DNA from: Syntrophales bacterium
GTDB lineage: Bacteria; Desulfobacterota; Syntrophia; Syntrophales; PHBD01
DNA: 64,000 nucleotides
Direction: 5' to 3'
Assembly: GCA_963668175.1 (NCBI GenBank)
Contig: OY764159.1
Coordinates: forward strand, 4,128,001-4,192,000
Of this stretch, positions 1,209 through 52,820 are shown one piece after another. Below the pieces are notes generated by a model. That model did no database searches and was not told where the DNA came from. It saw only the letters and a list, made by a program, of their open reading frames with translations. Position 1 is the stretch's first letter. Every line of letters begins with the position of its first letter. The translations under genes were made by a program, and so were the position numbers.

Positions 1209-2261
1209 ATGGCAGACAAAGACGTTTTCCGCCTTACGGAAACCGTCCACGGCGCCGGTTGAGCCTGTAAGATAGGTCCGGAGGACCTATACGAGGCCTT
1301 GCGGGATTTGCCGCTCATCACTGACCCGAATCTGATCGTAGGCATGGAACATGCCGAGGACGCAGGGGTGTATCAACTGAAAGACGATCTTGCCATCATC
1401 CAGACAGTCGACTTTTTTACGCCGATCGTCGATGACCCTTACACATTCGGCCAGATAGCCGTCACGAACGCGCTGAGCGACGTCTATGCCATGGGCGGGA
1501 GGCCCATCACCGCCATGAATATCGTCTGCTTCCCCGTCAAGAAGATGGATATCCGGATTCTACGGCAAATTCTTCAAGGCGGACTGGACAAGATGAGGGA
1601 AGCGGGGGTCCTTTTGATAGGCGGGCACAGCGTAGAAGACGATGAGTTGAAGTACGGTTTGTCCGTGACGGGCGTCATTCATCCGGCGAAGGTGCTTCTG
1701 AATCGAGGCGCGAAACCCGGAGACAGCCTCATTCTGACAAAACCGCTGGGAACCGGTATCGTCTCTACGGCAATCAAGGCCGGCATGGCGGACGACAAAC
1801 TGATAGCCGAATCCGTCCGCTCCATGACCTCTCTGAACAGGGCTGCAGCCGAACTGCTGGCGAACGAACCGAACATCCACGCCTGCACGGATGTCACCGG
1901 CTTCGGCTTTCTCGGACACGCAGCCGAAATGATCGACGGCACCGATGTCGGCCTGACTATTTATGCATCGGCCGTCCCTTACTTTCCGGCAATAAGAGAT
2001 TTCATCGAAGGGGGCATCGTTCCCGGCGGCCTTTATCGCAACAGGGATCATCGTCTTAAACAGATCGACATTTCAAAAGACTGCCCGGACTGGATGGTCG
2101 ATATCCTCTTCGATCCCCAAACGGCGGGCGGCCTGCTGTTCGCCCTCCCGGCCAATCAAGCCGCCGACTTAATAAAGAAAATGCATTTTCATGGCATCGC
2201 TGCGGCATCGATCGTAGGAAAGGTCGTCGCCGAACCCAAGGGGAGAATCTACATTCAATAA
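1209..2261 (+). CDS. selD: Selenide, water dikinase (selenophosphate synthetase); selenoprotein with Sec at UGA 1260-1262
   Basis: GGAGG RBS at 1195-1199 and ATG at 1209 give MADKDVFRLTETVHGAG-U-ACKIGP, in frame with the 1299..2261 ORF (TVDFFTPIVDDP, NALSDVYAMGG, GGHS, DVTGFG, DPQTAGGLL). U-x-x-K matches the SelD catalytic motif. Confidence 0.95.
1263..1297 (+). promoter_or_regulatory. Bacterial SECIS-like hairpin immediately 3' of the selD UGA
   Basis: Lower stem GCCT(1263-66)/AGGC(1294-97). Upper stem ATAGGTCC(1272-79)/GGACCTAT(1283-90) closes a GGA loop. Confidence 0.8.
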
Positions 2262-42868: not shown

Positions 42869-44764
42869 ATGCCGCGGATAACCTTTCATCCTCTTGGAGC
42901 GACCGTCGAGGCGCCATCCGGCCTGGAATTGCGCGATGCCGCAAAACGGGCGGGCATCGAGTTGGACTTTCCCTGCGGCGGCCAGGGGACATGCGGCCGG
43001 TGCGCTGCGCGCGTCCTATCCGGCCGTCTAGACGTCATAGAGACAGCCATCTCGGCCGACACCGTTCCTGATGAAGGATCTATCCTCGCCTGCCGGGCAA
43101 AGATCGGCGATGAAGACGCCGTTGTCGAAGTACGCGAGCAGCCGGATTTGTCAGCCGGTCAGTTCATCGACGAAGAGGAAGAAGCCTCGTTCATACCGCC
43201 TGGATGGCAGGAGCAACCCACCGACCAGGGAGCCCTCGTCTCGACTTATCTCATTGATGTGCCTCCACCGCAGGAGGGAGAAGGCGCCTCGGACTTGGAG
43301 CGTTTGTATACGTCTCTGCGGCGAAATCCGGAGGAGCCTGCCTTCGATTACAGCCTGCATGCGCTGCGCGAGCTGGCGGGCGCCCTTCGCTGCCGAAACG
43401 GGAAGGCGATGGCTGCGGCCGGGCGCTTCGGTGAGCGCCGGCGCCTCGTCCATCTGGAAGCGGGCGGCGACCTCCGTTCTCTTTACGGCATCGCCGTGGA
43501 CCTTGGCACGACCACGGTGGCCGTCAACCTGGTTTCTATTCCCGAAAACCGCATCATCGCGTCACGGACGGAATACAACGGCCAGGTCGTCTGCGGCCTC
43601 GACATCATCAGCCGGATCAATTACGCCGGTCGACCGGAAAGACTGGAAGAACTGCGCCTGAGAGCCCTCAAGACGATCAACGGCTTGATCGGGCAACTAG
43701 CCGCTGCCGTCGCACCGGCCCGGAATCGGATATACGGCTGCGCCCTTTCCGGCAACACGACAATGATCCATCTCTTGCTGGGCATGAATCCCGAGTATAT
43801 CCGTCTTGCCCCCTACACGCCGACCGTTCTGGACGTGCCGCCGCTTCGGGCAGGCGATATCGGCCTCGACATCCACCCGGAAGGCCCCGTCTTCATATCC
43901 CCGGCCGTCGGCAGTTACGTCGGCGGCGATATCACCGCCGGTCTTCTCTGCACAGGCTCCGCCTTCACGAGCGACGAGATATGCCTTTTTATGGATATCG
44001 GCACCAACGGCGAAATCGTCTTGGGAAACGGCGATTTCCTCATGGCCTGCGCCTGTTCCGCAGGGCCGGCATTCGAAGGCGGCGGCATCGGAAACGGCAT
44101 GAGGGCCGCCGGCGGGGCCATCGACCGGGTGCAGATCGATCGGGAAACGGGGCAGGCGACTTATCGCACCATCGGTGATTTGCCCCCGCGCGGCATCTGC
44201 GGCTCCGGAATGCTGTCACTCCTGGCCGGCCTTTTCACGGGAGGATGGCTCGATGCGTCCGGTCGTTTCAAACGGCCGAGTTCTTCATCTTTTATCGACT
44301 TCAAAGGCAGACTGGGGATTTATACCGTTGTTCCCTGGGAGAAGAACGCGATCACCGTGACGGAGCGGGACATCGAAAATCTCATCCGCGCCAAGGCGGC
44401 GCTATATGCGGCCTGCGGCCTGCTCACGAAACAGGCGGGGATCGGATTTCAGAACATAGCAAAGGTATTCATCGCCGGCGGATTCGGGAGGTACCTGGAC
44501 ATTGAAGACGCCGTTACGATAGGATTGTTGCCGGATATCCCCCGGGACCGCTTCCATTACCTGGGGAATGCGTCGCTTAAGGGCAGCACGATGATCCTGC
44601 TTTCGGAAGAACACCGGAGGCTGCAACAGGGGTTCGTGAAACGCATGACCTATGTGGAACTCAACACGGACTCCGAATACATGGATCAATACACGGGGGC
44701 TCTTTTTCTGCCCCACACGGACCGCCGCCAGTTCCCTTCGCTGAAAAACCGGCTGGCGGATTGA
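42869..44764 (+). CDS. acsV: ATP-dependent reductive activator of corrinoid proteins (RACo/AcsV; 2Fe-2S + ASKHA)
   Basis: CGGQGTCGRC...LAC, DLGTTT, GNTTM, YVGGD, DIGTNGE, AGPAFEG, GICGSG, AGGFG, GNAS. Confidence 0.9.
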   Translation: MPRITFHPLGATVEAPSGLELRDAAKRAGIELDFPCGGQGTCGRCAARVLSGRLDVIETAISADTVPDEGSILACRAKIGDEDAVVEVREQPDLSAGQFIDEEEEASFIPPGWQEQPTDQGALVSTYLIDVPPPQEGEGASDLERLYTSLRRNPEEPAFDYSLHALRELAGALRCRNGKAMAAAGRFGERRRLVHLEAGGDLRSLYGIAVDLGTTTVAVNLVSIPENRIIASRTEYNGQVVCGLDIISRINYAGRPERLEELRLRALKTINGLIGQLAAAVAPARNRIYGCALSGNTTMIHLLLGMNPEYIRLAPYTPTVLDVPPLRAGDIGLDIHPEGPVFISPAVGSYVGGDITAGLLCTGSAFTSDEICLFMDIGTNGEIVLGNGDFLMACACSAGPAFEGGGIGNGMRAAGGAIDRVQIDRETGQATYRTIGDLPPRGICGSGMLSLLAGLFTGGWLDASGRFKRPSSSSFIDFKGRLGIYTVVPWEKNAITVTERDIENLIRAKAALYAACGLLTKQAGIGFQNIAKVFIAGGFGRYLDIEDAVTIGLLPDIPRDRFHYLGNASLKGSTMILLSEEHRRLQQGFVKRMTYVELNTDSEYMDQYTGALFLPHTDRRQFPSLKNRLAD

Positions 44765-44769
44765 CGGCC

Positions 44770-46134
44770 TCAATGCTTCAGGCCGTATTTCTTCAGCTTG
44801 TAGCGAAGCATCCTTTCGCTGATGCCGAGAAGTTCCGCGGCCTTGGTCTGGTGGTATCCCGTCTTTTCCATGGCCTCGACGATCAGCCGCTTCTCCAGGT
44901 CTTCGATGGACTCCTTGAGCATCCCTTCTTCCTTTCTGCCCGATTCTCCGTGATCGAACGCATCTTCGCCGAAAGGCAGATCCTCGATGGAAATTACCGA
45001 CTCACGGGCAATCACGACGGCCCGTTCGATGATGTTTTCCAATTCGCGGACATTGCCCGGATAATCGTATTTCAACAGGAGATCCTGGGCCTCGCGGCTG
45101 AAACCTGCTATGTCCTTGCCGTTGTCCGCCGCATAGCGTTTGATGAAATGATCGATAAGCACCGGGATGTCCTCTTTCCTCTCCCGCAGCGGCGGCATGG
45201 CCATAACGACCACATTCAGCCGGTAGAAGAGGTCTTCGCGGAAATCGCCGGCCTTGACCCTCGCTTCCAGATCGCGATTGGTGGCGCTGATGATGCGCAC
45301 GTCGGAGCGGATGGTTTGGTTGCCGCCCACCCGCTGAAACTCACGTTCCTGCAAAAAGCGAAGGAGTTTGACCTGGACCGATTGCGATAATTCGCCGATT
45401 TCGTCGAGGAAAAGGGTCCCGCCGTCGGCCTCTTCAAAACGGCCGATGCGCCGTGCCGTGGCCCCGGTAAAGGACCCTTTCTCATGACCGAAGAGTTCGC
45501 TCTCCAGAAGATTTTCATGCAAGGCGCTGCAGTTGACGGAGATGATGGGCCGCTGCGACCGCGGGCTCAAATGATGGATGAGCTTCGCCATCAGTTCCTT
45601 GCCCGTACCGCTTTCCCCCTGGATGAGTATCGTCGCCCGGCTGGCGGCGACACGTCCGGCCATGTTGATCAGGGCGCTCATTTTCGGACTCCGGAAAATG
45701 ATCTGATCGGTCGTCACTCCTTTTTCCCTGAGTTCCTGTCGAAGCAGTTCATTCTCCCTGATCAGGGTGCGCCGCTCAGATACGCGATCCACCAACAATA
45801 GCAGTTCGTCGAATTCGATGGGCTTGGTAATATAGTCTATGGCTCCTGATTTCATGGCTTCGACAGCCGTCTCGATCGTTCCGAAAGCTGTAATGATCAC
45901 GACGTCGATCTCGGCATTGATCCCCTTGACCGCCTTGAGGACATCCATACCGCTCAGGCCCGGCATCTTGTAGTCGAGCAGGATCAAATCGTAATGGCCG
46001 CTCCGGACCAGTTGCACGCCCTTTTCGCCGTTTTCAGCCTCGGAAACCGAGTGGCCCTCCTTGATAAGGAAATCTCTTAACATTTCCCGCTGGGACTGCC
46101 CGTCTTCCACAATCAGGATGTTCAATTTTTTCAT
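44770..46134 (-). CDS. Sigma54-dependent response regulator (NtrC/AtoC/ZraR family)
   Basis: REC domain; GESGTGKE, ESELFGHEKGSFTGA, FLDEIGE, FREDLFYRLNV, PGNVREL; Fis-type HTH. Confidence 0.95.
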   Translation of the reverse strand: MKKLNILIVEDGQSQREMLRDFLIKEGHSVSEAENGEKGVQLVRSGHYDLILLDYKMPGLSGMDVLKAVKGINAEIDVVIITAFGTIETAVEAMKSGAIDYITKPIEFDELLLLVDRVSERRTLIRENELLRQELREKGVTTDQIIFRSPKMSALINMAGRVAASRATILIQGESGTGKELMAKLIHHLSPRSQRPIISVNCSALHENLLESELFGHEKGSFTGATARRIGRFEEADGGTLFLDEIGELSQSVQVKLLRFLQEREFQRVGGNQTIRSDVRIISATNRDLEARVKAGDFREDLFYRLNVVVMAMPPLRERKEDIPVLIDHFIKRYAADNGKDIAGFSREAQDLLLKYDYPGNVRELENIIERAVVIARESVISIEDLPFGEDAFDHGESGRKEEGMLKESIEDLEKRLIVEAMEKTGYHQTKAAELLGISERMLRYKLKKYGLKH

Positions 46135-47924
46135 GTCTGGATACCTTCTTTATTCGCCCGGTCGTTGATATGAATGGTCGGTAAAATGATCTCAAAAGTC
46201 GTGCCGGCGTTCTTGCGGCTGATGACATGTATTTCGCCGCCATGACCGCGGATGATTTCATGGGAAAGAGGCAATCCGAGGCCCAACCCTTTCTCCTTCG
46301 TCGTATACTCGGGATTGAAAATCTGATCCACTTCCTCCGTCGTCATCCCGCAGCCGTTGTCCGATATGCGGATGCTGACCCGGTCTTTGCTTATCTTTTC
46401 CACGGCGATGCGGATGTTGCCTCCGCCGGAGATGGACTCCATGGCGTTCTTGATGAAATTCAAGAGCGCCTGCTGGAGCTTGTCCACATCCATGGGTATA
46501 TTTAGATTGCCGTTCGACCACTCCGTCTTGACCGCAATGCCCTTCTCTTCCGCCTCGGCCTGTATGAGATTGACGATTTTCTGCAGGACCTCCGTGACGG
46601 GATAATCATGGAGTTCCAGGCGGCGGCTTTTGGAAAAGGTCAGGAACTCTTCAATAATTCCGTTCAGACGTCTGATCTCGTCCCGGATGACGCCGGTCAT
46701 GGTCTGAAACTCGGCAACCTGATTCTCGTCCGCCGGCATGAATTCCCTTTTCAACCGCTGGCTGGCCATGCTGATGGCATTTAAAGGATTGCGAATTTCG
46801 TGGGCGACTCCGGCGGCGAGTTTTCCCAGGGCCGACAGCCTTTCCGCCTTCTCCAGGCGGCGCTCTATGTCAACGATTCTAAGCAGGTGCTTATTCTGGT
46901 TCTGGTACAGGAACCACATGGACAACATCGTGATGATCACGACGAGCCCCATGAAGATGAACATGTTTCTCCTGTTCTCTTCCAGGATCTTCTCCGTACC
47001 GCCCCAGTCGATACCCAGCCTCGTAATCCCCACCACTTTACCGCCGAGCGAAAAAGGTACAGCCATATCGAGGAGCTGCTTCCCCAGGTACATAACCTTT
47101 CGGCTCTCCAGCTTTTTCGCACCGGACAGGATTTCCGCCGTATGCATCTCGCCTGGTTTCCAATTTTCCGGAAGGGTTCCGGTGCTGCCCAGCACTTTTC
47201 CCTTGGTATCCATAATTTTAATATAGACGAATCCCTGGCCTTGGCCGAGTTCGCGAATGGCTTTTTCCACGGATACTTTCAATCCCCAGTATTTCAATCC
47301 GTCACGGTCCAGCGCAATGATGATGGTGCCGCTGCCGTCCTTGCGTCTCAAGGCGACAAAACCCAGTTTTTTCACCAGGCTCAACTGGTTCAGGAGCGGC
47401 AACGTTACGGTTTCCTGCCTGGGAATGGAGGCCGCTTCGCCGGTGAACATGTCGGCCGGCAGCGGCCGGCTCTGGAATATGGTGCGGCCGTGCCGGTTCA
47501 GAACGGCGATGAGCCACAGGTCCTTTTCTTCGGCATATTTTCTCAATTCGCTTTTACTTAAATGATCTTCCTTCCATTTCTTATCGACATCCTTGGCCAA
47601 TTCGCCCAGGGCAGCGATGAGCGCCTTCTCCGGCGAGAACGGTTCGATGGTATAGGGCACAAAGGTCCCTTCCGTTCCTTTTTTAGGGGCATGGACAATG
47701 GCGTTCAAGTTTTCCTGCGAAAGGCGCTGTACGACATCGGCCAGACTTGTTCCCCGGCTTTCTATGAAATCCCCCAGGATTTTCTCGATCCGCTGCACGT
47801 CGATGAGACCCATGATAAGGATGAGCCCGATGAAAACGACGGAAACCGTCGCCACGGCGAGAGGCTGTAAAAAAGATCTGCCATAACGGGCGACAAGGCT
47901 CTGCCGCCATATTTTATCTTCCAT
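46131..47924 (-). CDS. Membrane sensor histidine kinase
   Basis: Two TM segments around a large extracytoplasmic region; AHEIRNPL, NFIKNA, DNGCG, GLGLGL; 4-nt overlap with the response regulator. Confidence 0.93.
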   Translation of the reverse strand: MEDKIWRQSLVARYGRSFLQPLAVATVSVVFIGLILIMGLIDVQRIEKILGDFIESRGTSLADVVQRLSQENLNAIVHAPKKGTEGTFVPYTIEPFSPEKALIAALGELAKDVDKKWKEDHLSKSELRKYAEEKDLWLIAVLNRHGRTIFQSRPLPADMFTGEAASIPRQETVTLPLLNQLSLVKKLGFVALRRKDGSGTIIIALDRDGLKYWGLKVSVEKAIRELGQGQGFVYIKIMDTKGKVLGSTGTLPENWKPGEMHTAEILSGAKKLESRKVMYLGKQLLDMAVPFSLGGKVVGITRLGIDWGGTEKILEENRRNMFIFMGLVVIITMLSMWFLYQNQNKHLLRIVDIERRLEKAERLSALGKLAAGVAHEIRNPLNAISMASQRLKREFMPADENQVAEFQTMTGVIRDEIRRLNGIIEEFLTFSKSRRLELHDYPVTEVLQKIVNLIQAEAEEKGIAVKTEWSNGNLNIPMDVDKLQQALLNFIKNAMESISGGGNIRIAVEKISKDRVSIRISDNGCGMTTEEVDQIFNPEYTTKEKGLGLGLPLSHEIIRGHGGEIHVISRKNAGTTFEIILPTIHINDRANKEGIQT

Positions 47925-48054: not shown

Positions 48055-48070
48055 TCGACAAATATGTCGA
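48055..48070. promoter_or_regulatory. Palindrome, candidate upstream activator site for the sigma54 promoter
   Basis: TCGACA-AATA-TGTCGA, about 200 bp upstream of the predicted start; a related half-site CCGACA lies at 48143-48148. Confidence 0.4.
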
Positions 48071-48246
48071 TTCCCGGGGCGATCGGCCGCTATTTGTATC
48101 TTGCCGATATTTAAGAGACAATTATATTCCCCCTGAAAACCGCCGACATTTTTTGCCTGATGGCGTCCCGTACCGCCATGGAGCCCCAGGCAGACCAAAC
48201 AATATATATTCTCGTAAATTCAACATGATACAAACATTCAATCTTT

Positions 48247-48263
48247 TTGGCACAGGACATGCA
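48247..48263 (+). promoter_or_regulatory. Sigma54 (-24/-12) promoter
   Basis: TTGGCAC-AGGAC-ATGCA against consensus TGGCAC-N5-TTGCW; GG and GC are correctly spaced. Confidence 0.72.
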
Positions 48264-48273
48264 AGCTTTATAT

Positions 48274-48399
48274 GTTCAGAGAAGGTTTTCAGTCAATCAC
48301 CGGGCATGGTTGGCTGATAGTAGAACGATCCAAATCTTCATCTATTACAAAACCTTAAAACTCCTGTTGAAGGGGGGGGCATCATTCCCCCCCTTTTTT
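48274..48399 (+). ncRNA. Candidate sigma54-dependent structured small RNA (~125 nt)
   Basis: Lies between the -24/-12 promoter and an intrinsic terminator, with no credible ORF. Folds by eye into a three-way junction plus a single-stranded CUCCU. Confidence 0.6.
48370..48399 (+). terminator. Intrinsic terminator (overlaps the rarA 3' end)
   Basis: AAGGGGGGG/CCCCCCCTT stem followed by a T-tract on the + strand. Confidence 0.75.
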
Positions 48400-49752
48400 A
48401 TTATCTTTTCTTCCAAGATTCATGCCTTTGCTCTTCTGCCAATACTCGATTCTTTCCCGAATGGTCTTTTCGAAACCGCGGTCAGTAGGATAATAGAACT
48501 TCATGCCCTTCAGCTTGTCAGGCAGATACTCCTGGGCGACATAGGCGTCTTCGTAGTCGTGCGCGTATTTGTAACCTTTGCTGTAGCCCAAATTTTTCAT
48601 GAGATTGGTCGGCGCATTCCGAATATGGAGGGGAACAGGCAGCGTGCCGGTCCGGGCCACGGTCGCCTTGACCCGGCCGTAGCCGGTATAAAGGGCGTTG
48701 CTTTTGGGCGCCGTTGCGAGATAAACCGCCGCCTGGGCCAGGGCGAGTTCGCCCTCCGGCAATCCGATGAAATGAAACGCTTCCTTGGCGTCCATGGCGA
48801 CGGCAAGAGCCCTTGGGTCCGCATTCCCGATATCCTCCGAAGCGAATCGCACCATGCGTCGGGCTATGAACAAAGGGTCTTCTCCCGCCATCAGCATCCG
48901 CGCCAGCCAATAGAGGGCGGCATCCGGATCACTTCCCCGGAGACTCTTGTGGAAAGCCGAGATCAGGTTGTAATGCTCTTCGCCATGTTTGTCATATTGC
49001 AGGGCTTTTTTCTGCAGCGATTCTTCGACTACCGAAACCGTGATCCTTTTTCGCCCTTCACCCGGTTCGCGGGACGACAGGAACGACGCAACGGCGTCGA
49101 GATTGTTCAACGCCGCCCGGGCATCGCCGTCGGCAAGTCCGACGACGGCCTCCAAGGCATCCGGATCAATCTCCAATCCCAACCGGCCCAAGCCCCTCTC
49201 TTCGTCCCGGACGGCTCTCAGTATTATTGTTCCAAGTTCTTCTTCGCTGAAAGGTTCCAGGACCATGACCTGAAGCCGCGACAGCAGGGGCGATATGACT
49301 TCGAAAGATGGATTTTCCGTCGTTGCGCCGATCAGAGTGATCAGGCCGTTCTCCACATGGGGGAGAAAGGCGTCCTGCTGGGCCTTGTTGAAACGGTGAA
49401 TTTCATCGACAAAAAGAACGGTTTTTTGCCGTTTCCGGCCCCACCGCTCGGAGGCTTCGTCGATCACGGCCCGGATATCTTTCACGCCCGAGAGCACAGC
49501 CGAGAAACTCGTAAAATGCGACTTCGTTTCATGGGCTATAATGCTTGCCAGGGTTGTCTTTCCCGAACCCGGCGCCCCCCAGAATATCATCGAAAAAAGC
49601 TTATCCTGTTCGATGGCCAGGCGCAACAGGCTGTTTTCTCCCAATAGTTTAGCTTGCCCGATATATTCATCCAGCCGGCGGGGACGCATCCGCTCGGCCA
49701 GCGGCCTTCGTTCGTTTGTTCCGCCTTCTTCTTGTTCCTCGAAAAGGTCCAT
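48382..49752 (-). CDS. rarA: Replication-associated recombination protein A (AAA+)
   Basis: [59 protein letters not shown]. Confidence 0.95.
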
Positions 49753-50027
49753 ATTCTCTCCTGCCATGACTGACAAACCGTGCGCCGCACATCCGTCCTG
49801 CGGCGGCGCGGCACAAGTACCTTCATGGTCGATATCATTTTCGTTTTAAGGAAATCAACCCTATTTATTGCCGTAATAACCCACTATAGACGCGATCATG
49901 AAAGGTCGAAAATTGCCCGTTCTCACTGCTGCCCGGCGGAATTCCTGGCAATAGGAACGCGTCGTATGCTAGACTCACAAACGTCACACCGGAACCGACA
50001 TGAAGCCCCGAATAACACAGGAGGTCG

Positions 50028-51221
50028 ATGATGATCACCGAGACTCTGCTTTTTCTGGCCCACCTGGCTATCGTCAGCATCGCGATCATGGCGTCGATGC
50101 AGATTTTATGGGAGAAAAACAGCCCCTTGAGGATGTATGCCCTGATCATTCCGAGCCTTGTCTACATGACGTTCATGGGTTTTATGATCGGAAAGATAGG
50201 CGTTTACAATCTCACGGCGATGATCGTGACGTGCCTCGCCAGCATTATTGGGCTTACCCTCAATTTTGCCGTCATCTCCGCACGACAATCCGGACCGATA
50301 TGGGCCATCATGCAGGGATTGGCGGCCAGAGCCCGGGCGATCTCCGACAGTTCGGAGGTCATGGGAGAAGCAAGCGGCGCCATGTCTCACGGATCGGCCA
50401 TCCAGAGCGCCACCCTCGAAGAAACGAGTGCGTCCCTCAAGGAAGTCCTCTCCATAACCAGACGGAACACCGATAAAACGAAAGAGATGAACAGCCTGGT
50501 GGACGAGACGGCGAGGATCATCTCGCGGATGAGTGCATTCATGGAAGATCTGACCCATTCCATGAACGATATCAACAAGGCCAGCGAAGAGACGTCAAAG
50601 ATCATCCGAACCATAGACGAAATAGCTTTTCAGACGAATCTCCTGGCGCTGAATGCCGCCGTGGAAGCGGCCAGGGCAGGGGCAGCAGGGGCGGGATTTG
50701 CCGTCGTCGCCGGCGAAGTGAGAAACCTGGCTATGCGTTCCGCAGAAGCGGCAAAAAACACAGCCGATCTGATCGAAGGAACCGTCAAAAAGATCAAGGC
50801 CGGCACCGAACTTGTCGCCAGGACGAATCAGGAGTTCACTGAAGTCACCGCCCGATCCGCGAAAATGGGCACCATGATCGCCGAAATTACAACCGTTTCC
50901 CAGCAGCAGGAACAGGGCATCGAACAGATCAGCAGTTCCATCCTCAATCTGGATCATGTCACCGGGGAGAACATGGCCCACGCCGAAGAGTGCTCGGCCC
51001 TGGCGGAGGATACATCCCAGCAGGCGGAAACCATGAGACGGTACATCCGGCGCATGGCCCCACTCGTCGGCTGGAGAAAATCGGCCGCAAAAGCCGTAAA
51101 ACGCATCCCCGACCGCTCGGAGGAGCAGCCCTCAAAGCAGGATACGCCCCGCCGGATAGAAAGAACCACCCCGAACCGGGCATTGCCGCCTCCTAAAAAG
51201 CAGCTTACCAAAAAAACCTGA
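50028..51221 (+). CDS. Methyl-accepting chemotaxis protein
   Basis: [37 protein letters not shown]; hydrophobic N-terminus; AGGAGG RBS. Confidence 0.92.
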
Positions 51222-51278: not shown

Positions 51279-52820
51279 TCATGAATTCTGCCGTTCCGAC
51301 GATATTGGATCGTATTCCGTACCGGTATCGGGTGCCGGCAACGGCCGGACCGCCTTTTCAATCCCGTCCACCGCTTCGATATCGCTGCCGGTGGAGGCCC
51401 CCAGCTCCTTGAAGCGCCTTGCCGTCACCAGGACCCTTCTTTCCAGCGATCCCATCGCCTTGTTATAGGCGTCCACGGCATTGCTCAATCCCTTGCCCAG
51501 GCTTGCAAAGTGGCCGGCAAGCGTCGTAATGCGGTCGTACAAAGACTTCCCCAATTCGCTGATCTGCTGGGCGTTTTCGGTGATCTTCTCCTGCCGCCAG
51601 CCATAGGCGACGGCTTTGAGAAGGGCAATCAGCGTCGTCGGCGTCGCCAGAATAACGCGATTTTCAACGCCGAATTCGATCAAACCCGGGTCCTGTTCCA
51701 GGGCCGCGCTGAAGAAGGTTTCGCCCGGCAGAAACAGGACGGCCATTTCGGGCGTCGGCGTGAAGTGCTCCCAGTAGGTCTTTGACCCGAGACTCGCCAG
51801 ATGCACCCGGATTTGGCGGGCATGCTCCTTCAGTTTCACCGTTCTTGCCGCTTCATCCTGGGTTTCCAGGGCTTCCAGGTAGGCCTGAAGAGGGGCCTTG
51901 GAATCGACGATGATGTTCTTGCCGTTCGGCAGTTTTACAACCATGTCCGGCCGTATCCTGCGATCATCCGCCGTTGCTGTTTCCTGCTGGATGAAATCGC
52001 AGTATTCAAGCATGCCGGCGATCTCCACGACTCTCTTCAATTGAATTTCGCCCCAGCGGCCGCGGACCGTGGGCATGCGCAGCGCCTTGACCAGATTGGC
52101 CGTCTCGCCCTGGAGCTGGACCTGTGTCGTGGCCAGCGATTTGATCTGCTCCGTCAGGGTGGCATAGGCGGACGTCCGCGCCTGCTCCAGATCGCGAATC
52201 TTGGTGTCGACTTTATCCAGAGATTCCCTGACGGGCTTGACCATCTCGTCGATGGCGCGGCGTCTCATTTCCAGATCGCCCCTGGCGCCTTCCTGGTACT
52301 TTTCCAGGATCGTACCCGCCAGGTCCAGGAACGCCTGATTGTTACTCTTTAAAGCCTCCGCCGACAAAGCCTTGAAGGCATCGGACAATTCATCCCGGGC
52401 GCGGCCGAGCAGAGCAAGCTTCTCCTCGGCGGAACGTTTCTCTTCGTTAAGCCTCGTTTCCGTCTCGGACAGGCAGGTTTTAAGCTCCGTTATTTCGTTC
52501 CGGAGTTCAACGATCTGTCGATCCCTGTCTCCCAAAGACGATTCAAGCGCCGGGATCCTGGTATTCCTCTCTTCCGCCGAAATACGGCGCCCCGTTTCTT
52601 CATTCAGGGTGTTTCTGAGGGCGGCCAGTTCCTCCCGGTCCCTGTCCAGCGCCTCCCTTATGTCCTTAAGCTGTCCTTCGCGGTTCTGCAGGCGCTCCTC
52701 CAGAATGCCCCTTTCTTTTTCGATGTCCTTGCTCGCGCTTAAGCGGCAAAGCATAAAGGCCGCCAGCGCCCCCCCCGCAATGCCCAGGATGAAGAAAATG
52801 ATGACCGATAGATAATCCAT
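51279..52820 (-). CDS. rmuC: DNA recombination protein RmuC
   Basis: N-terminal TM and coiled coil; [38 protein letters not shown]. Confidence 0.93.

Follow-up and report, generated by a model that had tools for sequence, protein, structure and literature searches.

The window analysed here is a 64,000-nt stretch of the genome of a Syntrophales bacterium (contig OY764159.1); coordinates are positions in this window unless another sequence is named. At 48247-48400 of the + strand, between a two-component system and rarA, it carries what is very probably a gene for a real, previously undescribed small regulatory RNA (sRNA), member of a family conserved across the order Syntrophales. The segment opens with a -24/-12 promoter of the sigma-54 type, TTGGCAC-AGGAC-ATGCA (48247-48263, +), in which GG (48249-50) and GC (48261-62) stand at the canonical spacing (TGGCAC-N5-TTGCW); their positions put the +1 near 48274. 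The predicted sRNA of ~125 nt (48274-48400, +, both ends estimated) closes with an intrinsic terminator (48369-48399, +) made of a G8/C7 stem, a 7-nt loop and six T (G8-CATCATT-C7-T6 at 48372-48399). The two-component genes lie upstream and are divergent from it: a sensor histidine kinase (46131-47924, -), then a response regulator of the sigma-54 enhancer-binding type (44770-46134, -). Downstream, the convergent rarA/mgsA gene (48382-49776, -; Pfam MgsA_C, 244 bits) has its stop codon in the terminator loop.

No open reading frame (ORF) of at least 30 aa starts on the + strand between ~48274 and the terminator, and the sole in-frame ATG of the predicted RNA encodes M-V-G-stop. A 466-aa + strand frame listed at 48247 to 49647, opposite rarA, is taken as a shadow of that gene. 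A preliminary description, made from the DNA letters, had announced the promoter, some 125 nt devoid of a real ORF, the G/C hairpin followed by a U-tract and the divergent kinase and activator genes; all four were recovered. As to the 3' junction, the rarA frame enters the sRNA terminator (48382-48420, -), so that its last codons, ...K-K-G-G-E-stop, are drawn from the A-tract and the G/C stem; the TGA falls within the hairpin loop and the two convergent genes overlap by ~18 bp.

The minimum free energy (MFE) fold of 48274-48402 (+) is a three-way junction plus the terminator, with an energy of -42.2 kcal/mol and a z-score of -3.95 (none of 200 shuffles equalled it). For the - strand the z-score was -1.81 and 11 of 200 shuffles did as well. 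Terminator-like sites were found by a simple scan on the + strand only; together with the many U-G pairs, this fixes the RNA strand as +, as the preliminary description had argued from the G-U pairs. The same description had drawn the junction with three helices, which can all be read from the + strand: P1 (AAGGTTTT at 48282-89 with AAAACCTT at 48349-56), P2 (CAGTCAATCA at 48290-99 with TGGTTGGCTG at 48307-16) and P3 (TAGTAGA at 48318-24 with TCTATTA at 48341-47).

The distribution of the RNA was determined with DNA, pattern and covariance-model searches. No Rfam 15 family reached its gathering score in the 64-kb window, and the 10 sub-threshold matches, such as SorX (20.3 bits against 46.6), were driven by the terminator and discarded. 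A DNA search of 61 related genomes detected the 3' two-thirds of the RNA, at 73-79% identity, in three genomes from two families, where the promoter, the hairpin, the CU stretch, the terminator and the convergent rarA were all present. Five contigs, labelled Syntrophales/Syntrophaceae or 'Deltaproteobacteria bacterium', came out of a pattern scan over genomes representing species. Two covariance models were then applied to 151 Syntrophales genomes: R1, built from 5 sequences, gave the RNA in 79 of them at E <= 0.01, and R2, built from 52 sequences, in 85 genomes from 15 of the 24 families at E <= 1e-6. The window RNA itself, which is single-copy in its own genome, scores 121.7 bits with R1 and 77.6 bits with R2. 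When R2 was run on a phylum sample of 151 genomes, nine matches were obtained, four of them within Syntrophales; the five outside the order (E from 5e-5 to 8e-4) were bare terminators without the GGGCA loop, promoter, kinase or rarA, which leaves no true match outside Syntrophales in that sample. The R1 search also gave two weak rows (L083 and L082:693-799) of the same terminator-only type, with neither loop, promoter nor synteny, which were left out of the counts. At the level of abstracts, a literature search returned no work on small RNAs in Syntrophus, Smithella or Syntrophales.

The genomic setting is conserved along with the RNA. Among the first 32 loci examined, the kinase ortholog was divergent upstream in 29 and rarA convergent downstream in 29. 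In the loci of family f11, rarA is ~700 nt away or outside the flank, yet the RNA, its promoter and the upstream boxes are kept. According to the covariance models, several genomes carry two or three copies of the RNA, and in one of them the second copy, with its own -24/-12 promoter, is ~1.1 Mb from the kinase. A tandem arrangement was seen in L073 (G013:C126:11900-14300), with copies at 615-736 and 1575-1696 (-), ~960 bp apart, each behind its own TGGCATACTATCTGCA promoter. In L146 and L149 (family f21, genomes G064 and G028), the kinase and an RNA of the main type, usually ~0.4 kb apart, are separated by 7 kb and 3.5 kb; coding-looking sequence is present beside the kinase in both, which suggests an insertion between kinase and RNA.

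The upstream region contains two candidate enhancer-binding-protein sites, which we call UAS1 and UAS2 (upstream activating sequences). UAS1 is a palindrome, TCGACAAATATGTCGA, ~215 bp upstream of the RNA (48055-48070), and UAS2, CGACATTTTTTGCC, is ~126 bp upstream (48144-48157); both distances fall in the range of ~80-250 bp typical of activator sites. In 31 of the 32 first loci, the RNA is preceded at constant spacing by a YGGCAY-N5-nTGCW promoter, and the same 31 possess both boxes. UAS1 is of the TCGACA-N4-TGTCGA type: CGACA-N4-TGTCG or a one-base variant of it occurs at -212 to -237, the match being exact in 29 of the 32 loci and the variants being those of L049 and L056. UAS2 (consensus CGACATTtnTTGCC) follows 85-92 bp downstream of UAS1, and the pair can be summarised as TCGACA-N4-TGTCGA and CGACATTTnTTGCC. 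The intergenic DNA around promoter and boxes is otherwise unalignable. The exception among the 32 is L033, an orphan copy without promoter context. That copy (2481-2607, +, in a Syntrophales metagenome-assembled genome) begins just past an ORF stop codon and still shows a terminator-like hairpin as well as hairpin 1 with CGGGCAU in its loop; neither kinase nor rarA accompanies it, and the -24/-12 element and CGACA boxes are missing. Strict -24/-12 promoters were also present in 13 of 20 further copies.

Taken alone, the promoter match at the locus means little, since the window's own genome contains 55 -24/-12-like matches; it is conservation that carries weight. The same genome has 12 CGACA-N4-TGTCG palindromes, only one of which, that of the sRNA locus, is within 400 bp of a -24/-12 match. 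Judging from this single combination, the regulator appears to have no direct target of this kind in the genome other than the RNA.

The structure was tested on a structure-blind MAFFT alignment of 52 copies, with partners slid by 1-3 columns and 500 shuffles as controls. For hairpin 1 and the terminator together, 87.3% of the positions were paired (34-56% in the slid controls) and 16 of 21 pairs varied on both sides (5-9 in the slid controls); none of the 500 shuffles reached any of five whole-structure measures. Hairpin 1 corresponds to P2, extended by the register of the family (48287-48319, +), and exposes the loop A-CCGGGCA-U (48299-48307). By itself it counts 12-13 pairs; taken as 13 pairs, it is 81% paired with 10 pairs varying on both sides. 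The terminator helix is 96.9-99.3% paired and six of its eight pairs vary on both sides. U-G pairs are frequent in these two helices, which again fits the + strand. P1 and P3 behaved differently: across nine sequences from the family to which the window belongs, pairing reached just 26.7% of the cells, no better than in shuffles or slid controls, and RNAalifold retained hairpin 1 and the terminator only. The preliminary junction thus holds in part: its helices exist and form in the MFE fold, P2 is kept in relatives together with the promoter, P1 and P3 are not, and the three-way junction belongs to this sequence alone. In a model-fitted alignment, which leans towards the model, there is a second small hairpin (GAAGG/CCUUC) that the window's RNA lacks; it was 73.9% paired, with 6/6 pairs varying on both sides.

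Two single-stranded elements recur. The loop of hairpin 1 contains GGGCA in 51 of the 52 copies and CGGGCA in 43, and its probability of being unpaired in the window RNA is 0.97. The other element is a CU-rich, anti-Shine-Dalgarno-like stretch just before the terminator, AAAACUCCUG (48357-48366, +; AAAACTCCT at 48357-65). CUCCU is found between the second hairpin and the terminator in 38 of the 52 copies, and in 42 either CUCCU or CCUCC stands ahead of the terminator stem or immediately behind it. The preliminary description had singled out this stretch as the unpaired functional part; the sequence is indeed there and recurs, but the invariant and most conserved element is the CGGGCAU loop.

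Both genes of the divergent two-component system were identified by their Pfam domains. The response regulator combines receiver, AAA+ sigma-54 interaction and Fis-type helix-turn-helix domains (Response_reg, 102 bits; Sigma54_activat, 241 bits; HTH_8, 60 bits); its best NCBIfam matches are AtoC (523 bits) and ZraR (455 bits), each under its curated cut-off. The kinase has HisKA and HATPase_c domains, preceded by two predicted transmembrane segments (hydrophobic stretches at residues ~21-41 and 320-340, located by eye on the translation) that flank an extracytoplasmic domain of ~280 aa; its N-terminal part gives a sub-threshold match to sCache_3_2 (E 0.002, 18.6 bits against a cut-off of 28.4). 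RpoN is encoded in the genome (493-aa frame, Sigma54_DBD, 217.9 bits). A RapZ-like gene was noticed ~2 kb downstream of rpoN (G000:C1:1442981-1446153, +), as in the proteobacterial rpoN operon.

From the promoter, the boxes, the kinase synteny, the covarying hairpin and the terminator, the core of the preliminary proposal, i.e. a sigma-54-dependent sRNA as the output of a two-component system, receives strong support, and we are confident that a real sRNA gene of this dependence lies here. Somewhat less firmly, we favour the view that 48274-48400 (+) encodes a trans-acting sRNA of ~125 nt which is the dedicated output of the divergent system. The membrane kinase would sense an extracytoplasmic signal through its Cache-like domain of ~280 aa and phosphorylate the NtrC-type regulator. 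The latter would bind the two CGACA boxes at about -215 and -126, a pairing of protein and site that we infer, and activate RpoN-polymerase at TTGGCAC-N5-ATGCA, transcription ending at the G8/C7-U6 terminator. The RNA so made would consist of the hairpin with its CGGGCAU loop, an A-rich linker, the CU-rich stretch AAAACUCCUG and the terminator. The exposed loop, the CU-rich stretch, or both, could then reduce the translation of mRNAs by pairing with their purine-rich ribosome-binding regions; occlusion of ribosome-binding sites through CUCCU, the mode put forward in the preliminary description, is plausible. A search of the window's own genome, rated 100% complete, gave no Hfq, ProQ or CsrA, and the RNA would therefore presumably act without these chaperones. 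Whether base-pairing repression at ribosome-binding sites is the main mode of action seems to us an evenly balanced question.

Several observations weigh against this reading or parts of it. None of the recorded RNA runs was found to contain the locus, so that the existence, the 5' end and the size of the transcript are all predicted. A weak sigma-70-like match (9/12) at 48247-48276 overlaps the -24/-12 element. In seven of the 20 further copies, all from the sister genus of the window's family, TGGCAC is kept and the -12 element is degenerate (CTGAA or CTGTA, thus GA or GT). In that genus there is also no free CU stretch, CCUCCUC being the 3' arm of the terminator, and more generally 14 of the 52 copies have no CUCCU before the terminator. 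Even in the window RNA, the mean unpaired probability of CUCCU is only 0.39 because it is able to pair with the 5' end of the RNA. Nor did target searches favour either seed. RNAduplex scans of 4058 crude translation-initiation regions (TIRs) of the window's own genome gave best energies of -25.8 for the loop seed (shuffle mean -26.2) and -21.7 for the 3' seed (shuffle mean -20.7), neither being better than with shuffled seeds, and no common theme emerged among the top RNAduplex targets or among 30 genes with AGGAGTT-type sites. In the TIRs of 29 kinase genes, no conserved complementarity to the sRNA, as expected of feedback on the kinase, was seen.

Other pattern searches were equally flat. 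The complement of the loop, ATGCCCG, has 1390 occurrences in the genome without visible enrichment at gene starts, and an order-wide search for the complement of the CU stretch gave background-level counts except at the sRNA genes themselves. One side observation concerns a 74-aa ORF (50959-51183, -) lying antisense inside a methyl-accepting chemotaxis protein gene: its start, AGGAGG-N6-ATGCCCGGTT, includes 10 nt complementary to the sRNA loop. As chance alone would give ~9 such 10-mers in the genome, this is taken as a coincidence.

Given that no mRNA target stood out, another mode of action has to be considered, in which the RNA works mainly by binding a protein, with the CGGGCAU loop as recognition site, and serves as a decoy or adaptor in the manner of GlmY for RapZ. 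That the loop is the most conserved element, that it is kept in the genus without a free CU stretch and that a RapZ-like gene adjoins rpoN in the window's own genome would all suit this idea. However, RapZ-like proteins are widespread (a family search matched 7 of 14 control genomes) and nothing ties the one present here to the RNA; the Rfam models of GlmY and GlmZ give no match, CsrA and ProQ were not found, and conserved loops are also typical seeds of base-pairing sRNAs that act without a chaperone. The frame that might be taken for glmS is, as far as we can judge by eye, presumably a PurF-type amidotransferase. We regard protein binding as the main function as unlikely, although it is the strongest of the rival readings. 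An action in cis on rarA, by convergent transcription or antisense pairing at the shared terminator that would tune the 3' end or the stability of the rarA transcript, with no trans target at all, would account for the convergence of rarA in 29 of 32 loci and for the stop codon located inside the terminator loop in the window. It is very unlikely: the overlap is at most ~20 nt, the f11 loci retain the RNA, promoter and boxes with rarA distant or outside the flank, extra copies exist elsewhere, including the one ~1.1 Mb from the kinase with its own promoter, and pure interference would need neither a covarying hairpin nor a conserved loop.

The remaining alternatives question the nature of the gene. 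If its promoter were of the sigma-70 type, or if the -24/-12 match were fortuitous and the hairpin only the terminator of rarA, the 9/12 sigma-70-like match and the 55 genomic -24/-12-like matches, which make a single one non-significant, would be explained. Against this stand the -24/-12 spacing and the two boxes, conserved across 15 families when the flanks are not, the presence of the terminator on the + strand only and the unremarkable fold of the - strand (z = -1.81). The part of this explanation that reduces the hairpin to a rarA terminator is ruled out by the strand of the terminator and by the persistence of the RNA where rarA is not adjacent, so that for the whole we see a very small chance. 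The transcript might also encode a tiny peptide or be the leader of a gene, since the conserved AUG of the loop (GGGCAUG) opens a frame of 3-4 codons and, in one sister family, the same promoter precedes a protein gene. But this frame reads M-V-G-stop here and M-I-G-R-stop in most relatives, no suitably spaced Shine-Dalgarno sequence precedes it, the terminator comes immediately afterwards and the gene beyond is encoded on the opposite strand; such a coding or leader role is extremely improbable. Of the readings considered, the trans-acting sRNA made from a sigma-54 promoter is the one we retain.

The two-component system is more widespread than the RNA: an ortholog of the sensor part of the kinase was present in 140 of the 151 genomes of the order. 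The DNA adjoining the kinase ortholog was examined in families without a covariance-model match. In families f5, f20 and f2, both boxes and a -24/-12 element precede other short predicted transcripts, which are barely alignable to the main type and are CU-rich, with motifs such as AUCUCCUCCUU, GUAAACUCCAAAAUC and AAGCCCUCCUG and GGGGAGG-type terminators. In f7, one genome has one box and a -24/-12 element, farther than usual, before a short CU-rich predicted transcript, and two genomes keep only the first box. Family f14 is different: in six of the nine genomes examined, the module precedes an ORF of ~150-160 aa with a signal peptide and LTXXQ-type motifs, situated at the exact place occupied by the sRNA in the window's genome. 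Two of these ORFs were run against Pfam; the complete one passes (Metal_resist PF13801, 52.1 bits against 29.2; LTXXQ PF07813, 34.3 against 24.3) and the partial one, at 24.6 bits, is below the cut-off. The other three f14 genomes have yet another sRNA-like type. In all, at least five types of sequence placed behind this module share recurring CU-rich motifs, a point in favour of the base-pairing mode of action.

The LTXXQ protein family includes the well-known ZraP, CpxP and Spy; in Escherichia coli, ZraSR has zraP as its divergent sigma-54 target. The presence of a ZraP/Spy-type gene behind the f14 module makes envelope or periplasmic stress a likely setting for it; this output is the only functional clue to the physiology of the circuit, and it hints at the envelope or periplasm. 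A role of the window's circuit in envelope stress can be proposed only tentatively. The link is provided by one sister family, f14, and the window's regulator and kinase, at 455.4 bits for ZraR (cut-off 760) and 200 bits for ZraS (cut-off 479), are, on these scores, not ZraR/ZraS equivalogs; both points speak against it. The window's own genome has five Metal_resist/LTXXQ (ZraP/Spy-like) genes, one of them at G000:C1:3399199-3399549 (-). One of the five has a -24/-12-like TGGTACGGACCTTGCT 47 nt upstream of its start; none is near a CGACA palindrome. RNAduplex over the TIRs of these five paralogs yielded only uninterpretable long duplexes.

These comparisons raise a broader possibility, which for now we hold to be doubtful: across Syntrophales, the module (kinase, NtrC-type regulator, two CGACA boxes and -24/-12 promoter) would be kept while its single transcribed product is repeatedly exchanged, being in some genera a periplasmic protein of the ZraP/Spy kind and in others a CU-rich sRNA, of which there are five or more types that barely align. 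If that were true, one stress response would be served interchangeably by an sRNA or by a periplasmic chaperone-like protein, and a fixed enhancer-dependent promoter would act as a cradle for the birth of new sRNAs.

The RNA family is new but its kind is known, and it can be set beside Qrr/LuxO, GlmY/GlrKR and Pxr. What is unusual is its evolution, since one enhancer-dependent module is followed by different RNAs, or by a ZraP-like protein gene, depending on the family. The Qrr sRNAs pair at ribosome-binding regions and need Hfq; qrr1 is divergent beside luxO and some genomes have multiple paralogs. As with Qrr/LuxO of the Vibrionaceae, an NtrC-type response regulator and sigma-54 would drive here a small RNA present in 2-3 copies in some genomes. 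There is, however, no match to the Rfam Qrr family (RF00378), not even below threshold; the window regulator scores 363.8 bits against the LuxO cut-off of 800, a cognate membrane kinase is co-encoded, and Hfq, on which Qrr depends, was not found in the Syntrophales genome. With the GlmY-GlrK/GlrR system of Enterobacteriaceae (abstracts of PMC7073468 and PMC4152352), the locus shares an sRNA gene beside the genes of its controlling kinase and sigma-54 activator, upstream activator sites (candidate ones here) and, tentatively, a link to the envelope. It differs by the lack of an Rfam match, by the GlrR score of the regulator (350.6 bits, cut-off 763) and by the fact that GlmY is a protein decoy, which is here only a rival reading. 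The ZraP-ZraSR and CpxP-CpxAR loci have in common with the present one two-component genes divergent from a sigma-54-driven target, and the LTXXQ-type ORF of f14 strengthens the likeness. The window target is nevertheless an RNA and not zraP, the ZraP-like target being confined to the f14 relatives, and the kinase has a sensor domain of ~280 aa, Cache-like by its sub-threshold match, that distinguishes it from ZraS.

Closer in taxonomy, four non-coding RNAs under enhancer-binding proteins belong, according to Kazakov et al. (2015, PMC4641369), to the reconstructed sigma-54 regulome of Desulfovibrio vulgaris. D. vulgaris belongs to related sulfate reducers, grouped with Syntrophales in the Deltaproteobacteria or Desulfobacterota. 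It is of another order, and R2 had no true match outside Syntrophales in the phylum sample; on these grounds its RNAs are probably distinct from the present family. RsaE/RoxS of Firmicutes are examples of chaperone-independent sRNAs, from organisms where Hfq is absent or dispensable, that direct short C/U-rich single-stranded motifs against GGAG-type Shine-Dalgarno sequences. The likeness to our RNA would be one of mechanism only, their sequence and regulation being unrelated and not sigma-54-dependent.

Members of the Syntrophales play a key part in the syntrophic degradation of fatty acids and aromatic compounds that takes place in methanogenic habitats. The locus offers in these bacteria a testable circuit made of a sensor kinase, an enhancer-binding regulator, two predicted boxes, a sigma-54 promoter and one small RNA, which occurs in more than half of the sampled Syntrophales genomes, with none of Hfq, ProQ and CsrA found in the one genome checked. 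The RNA would add a family to Rfam, and the same module, followed by an RNA or by a periplasmic protein, is a natural comparison for the signal sensed and for the birth and replacement of sRNA genes. No link was seen between the sRNA and its further neighbours in the window, which are a RACo-type reductive activator of corrinoid proteins (42869-44764, +), the methyl-accepting chemotaxis protein already mentioned (50028-51221, +) and RmuC (51279-52820, -).

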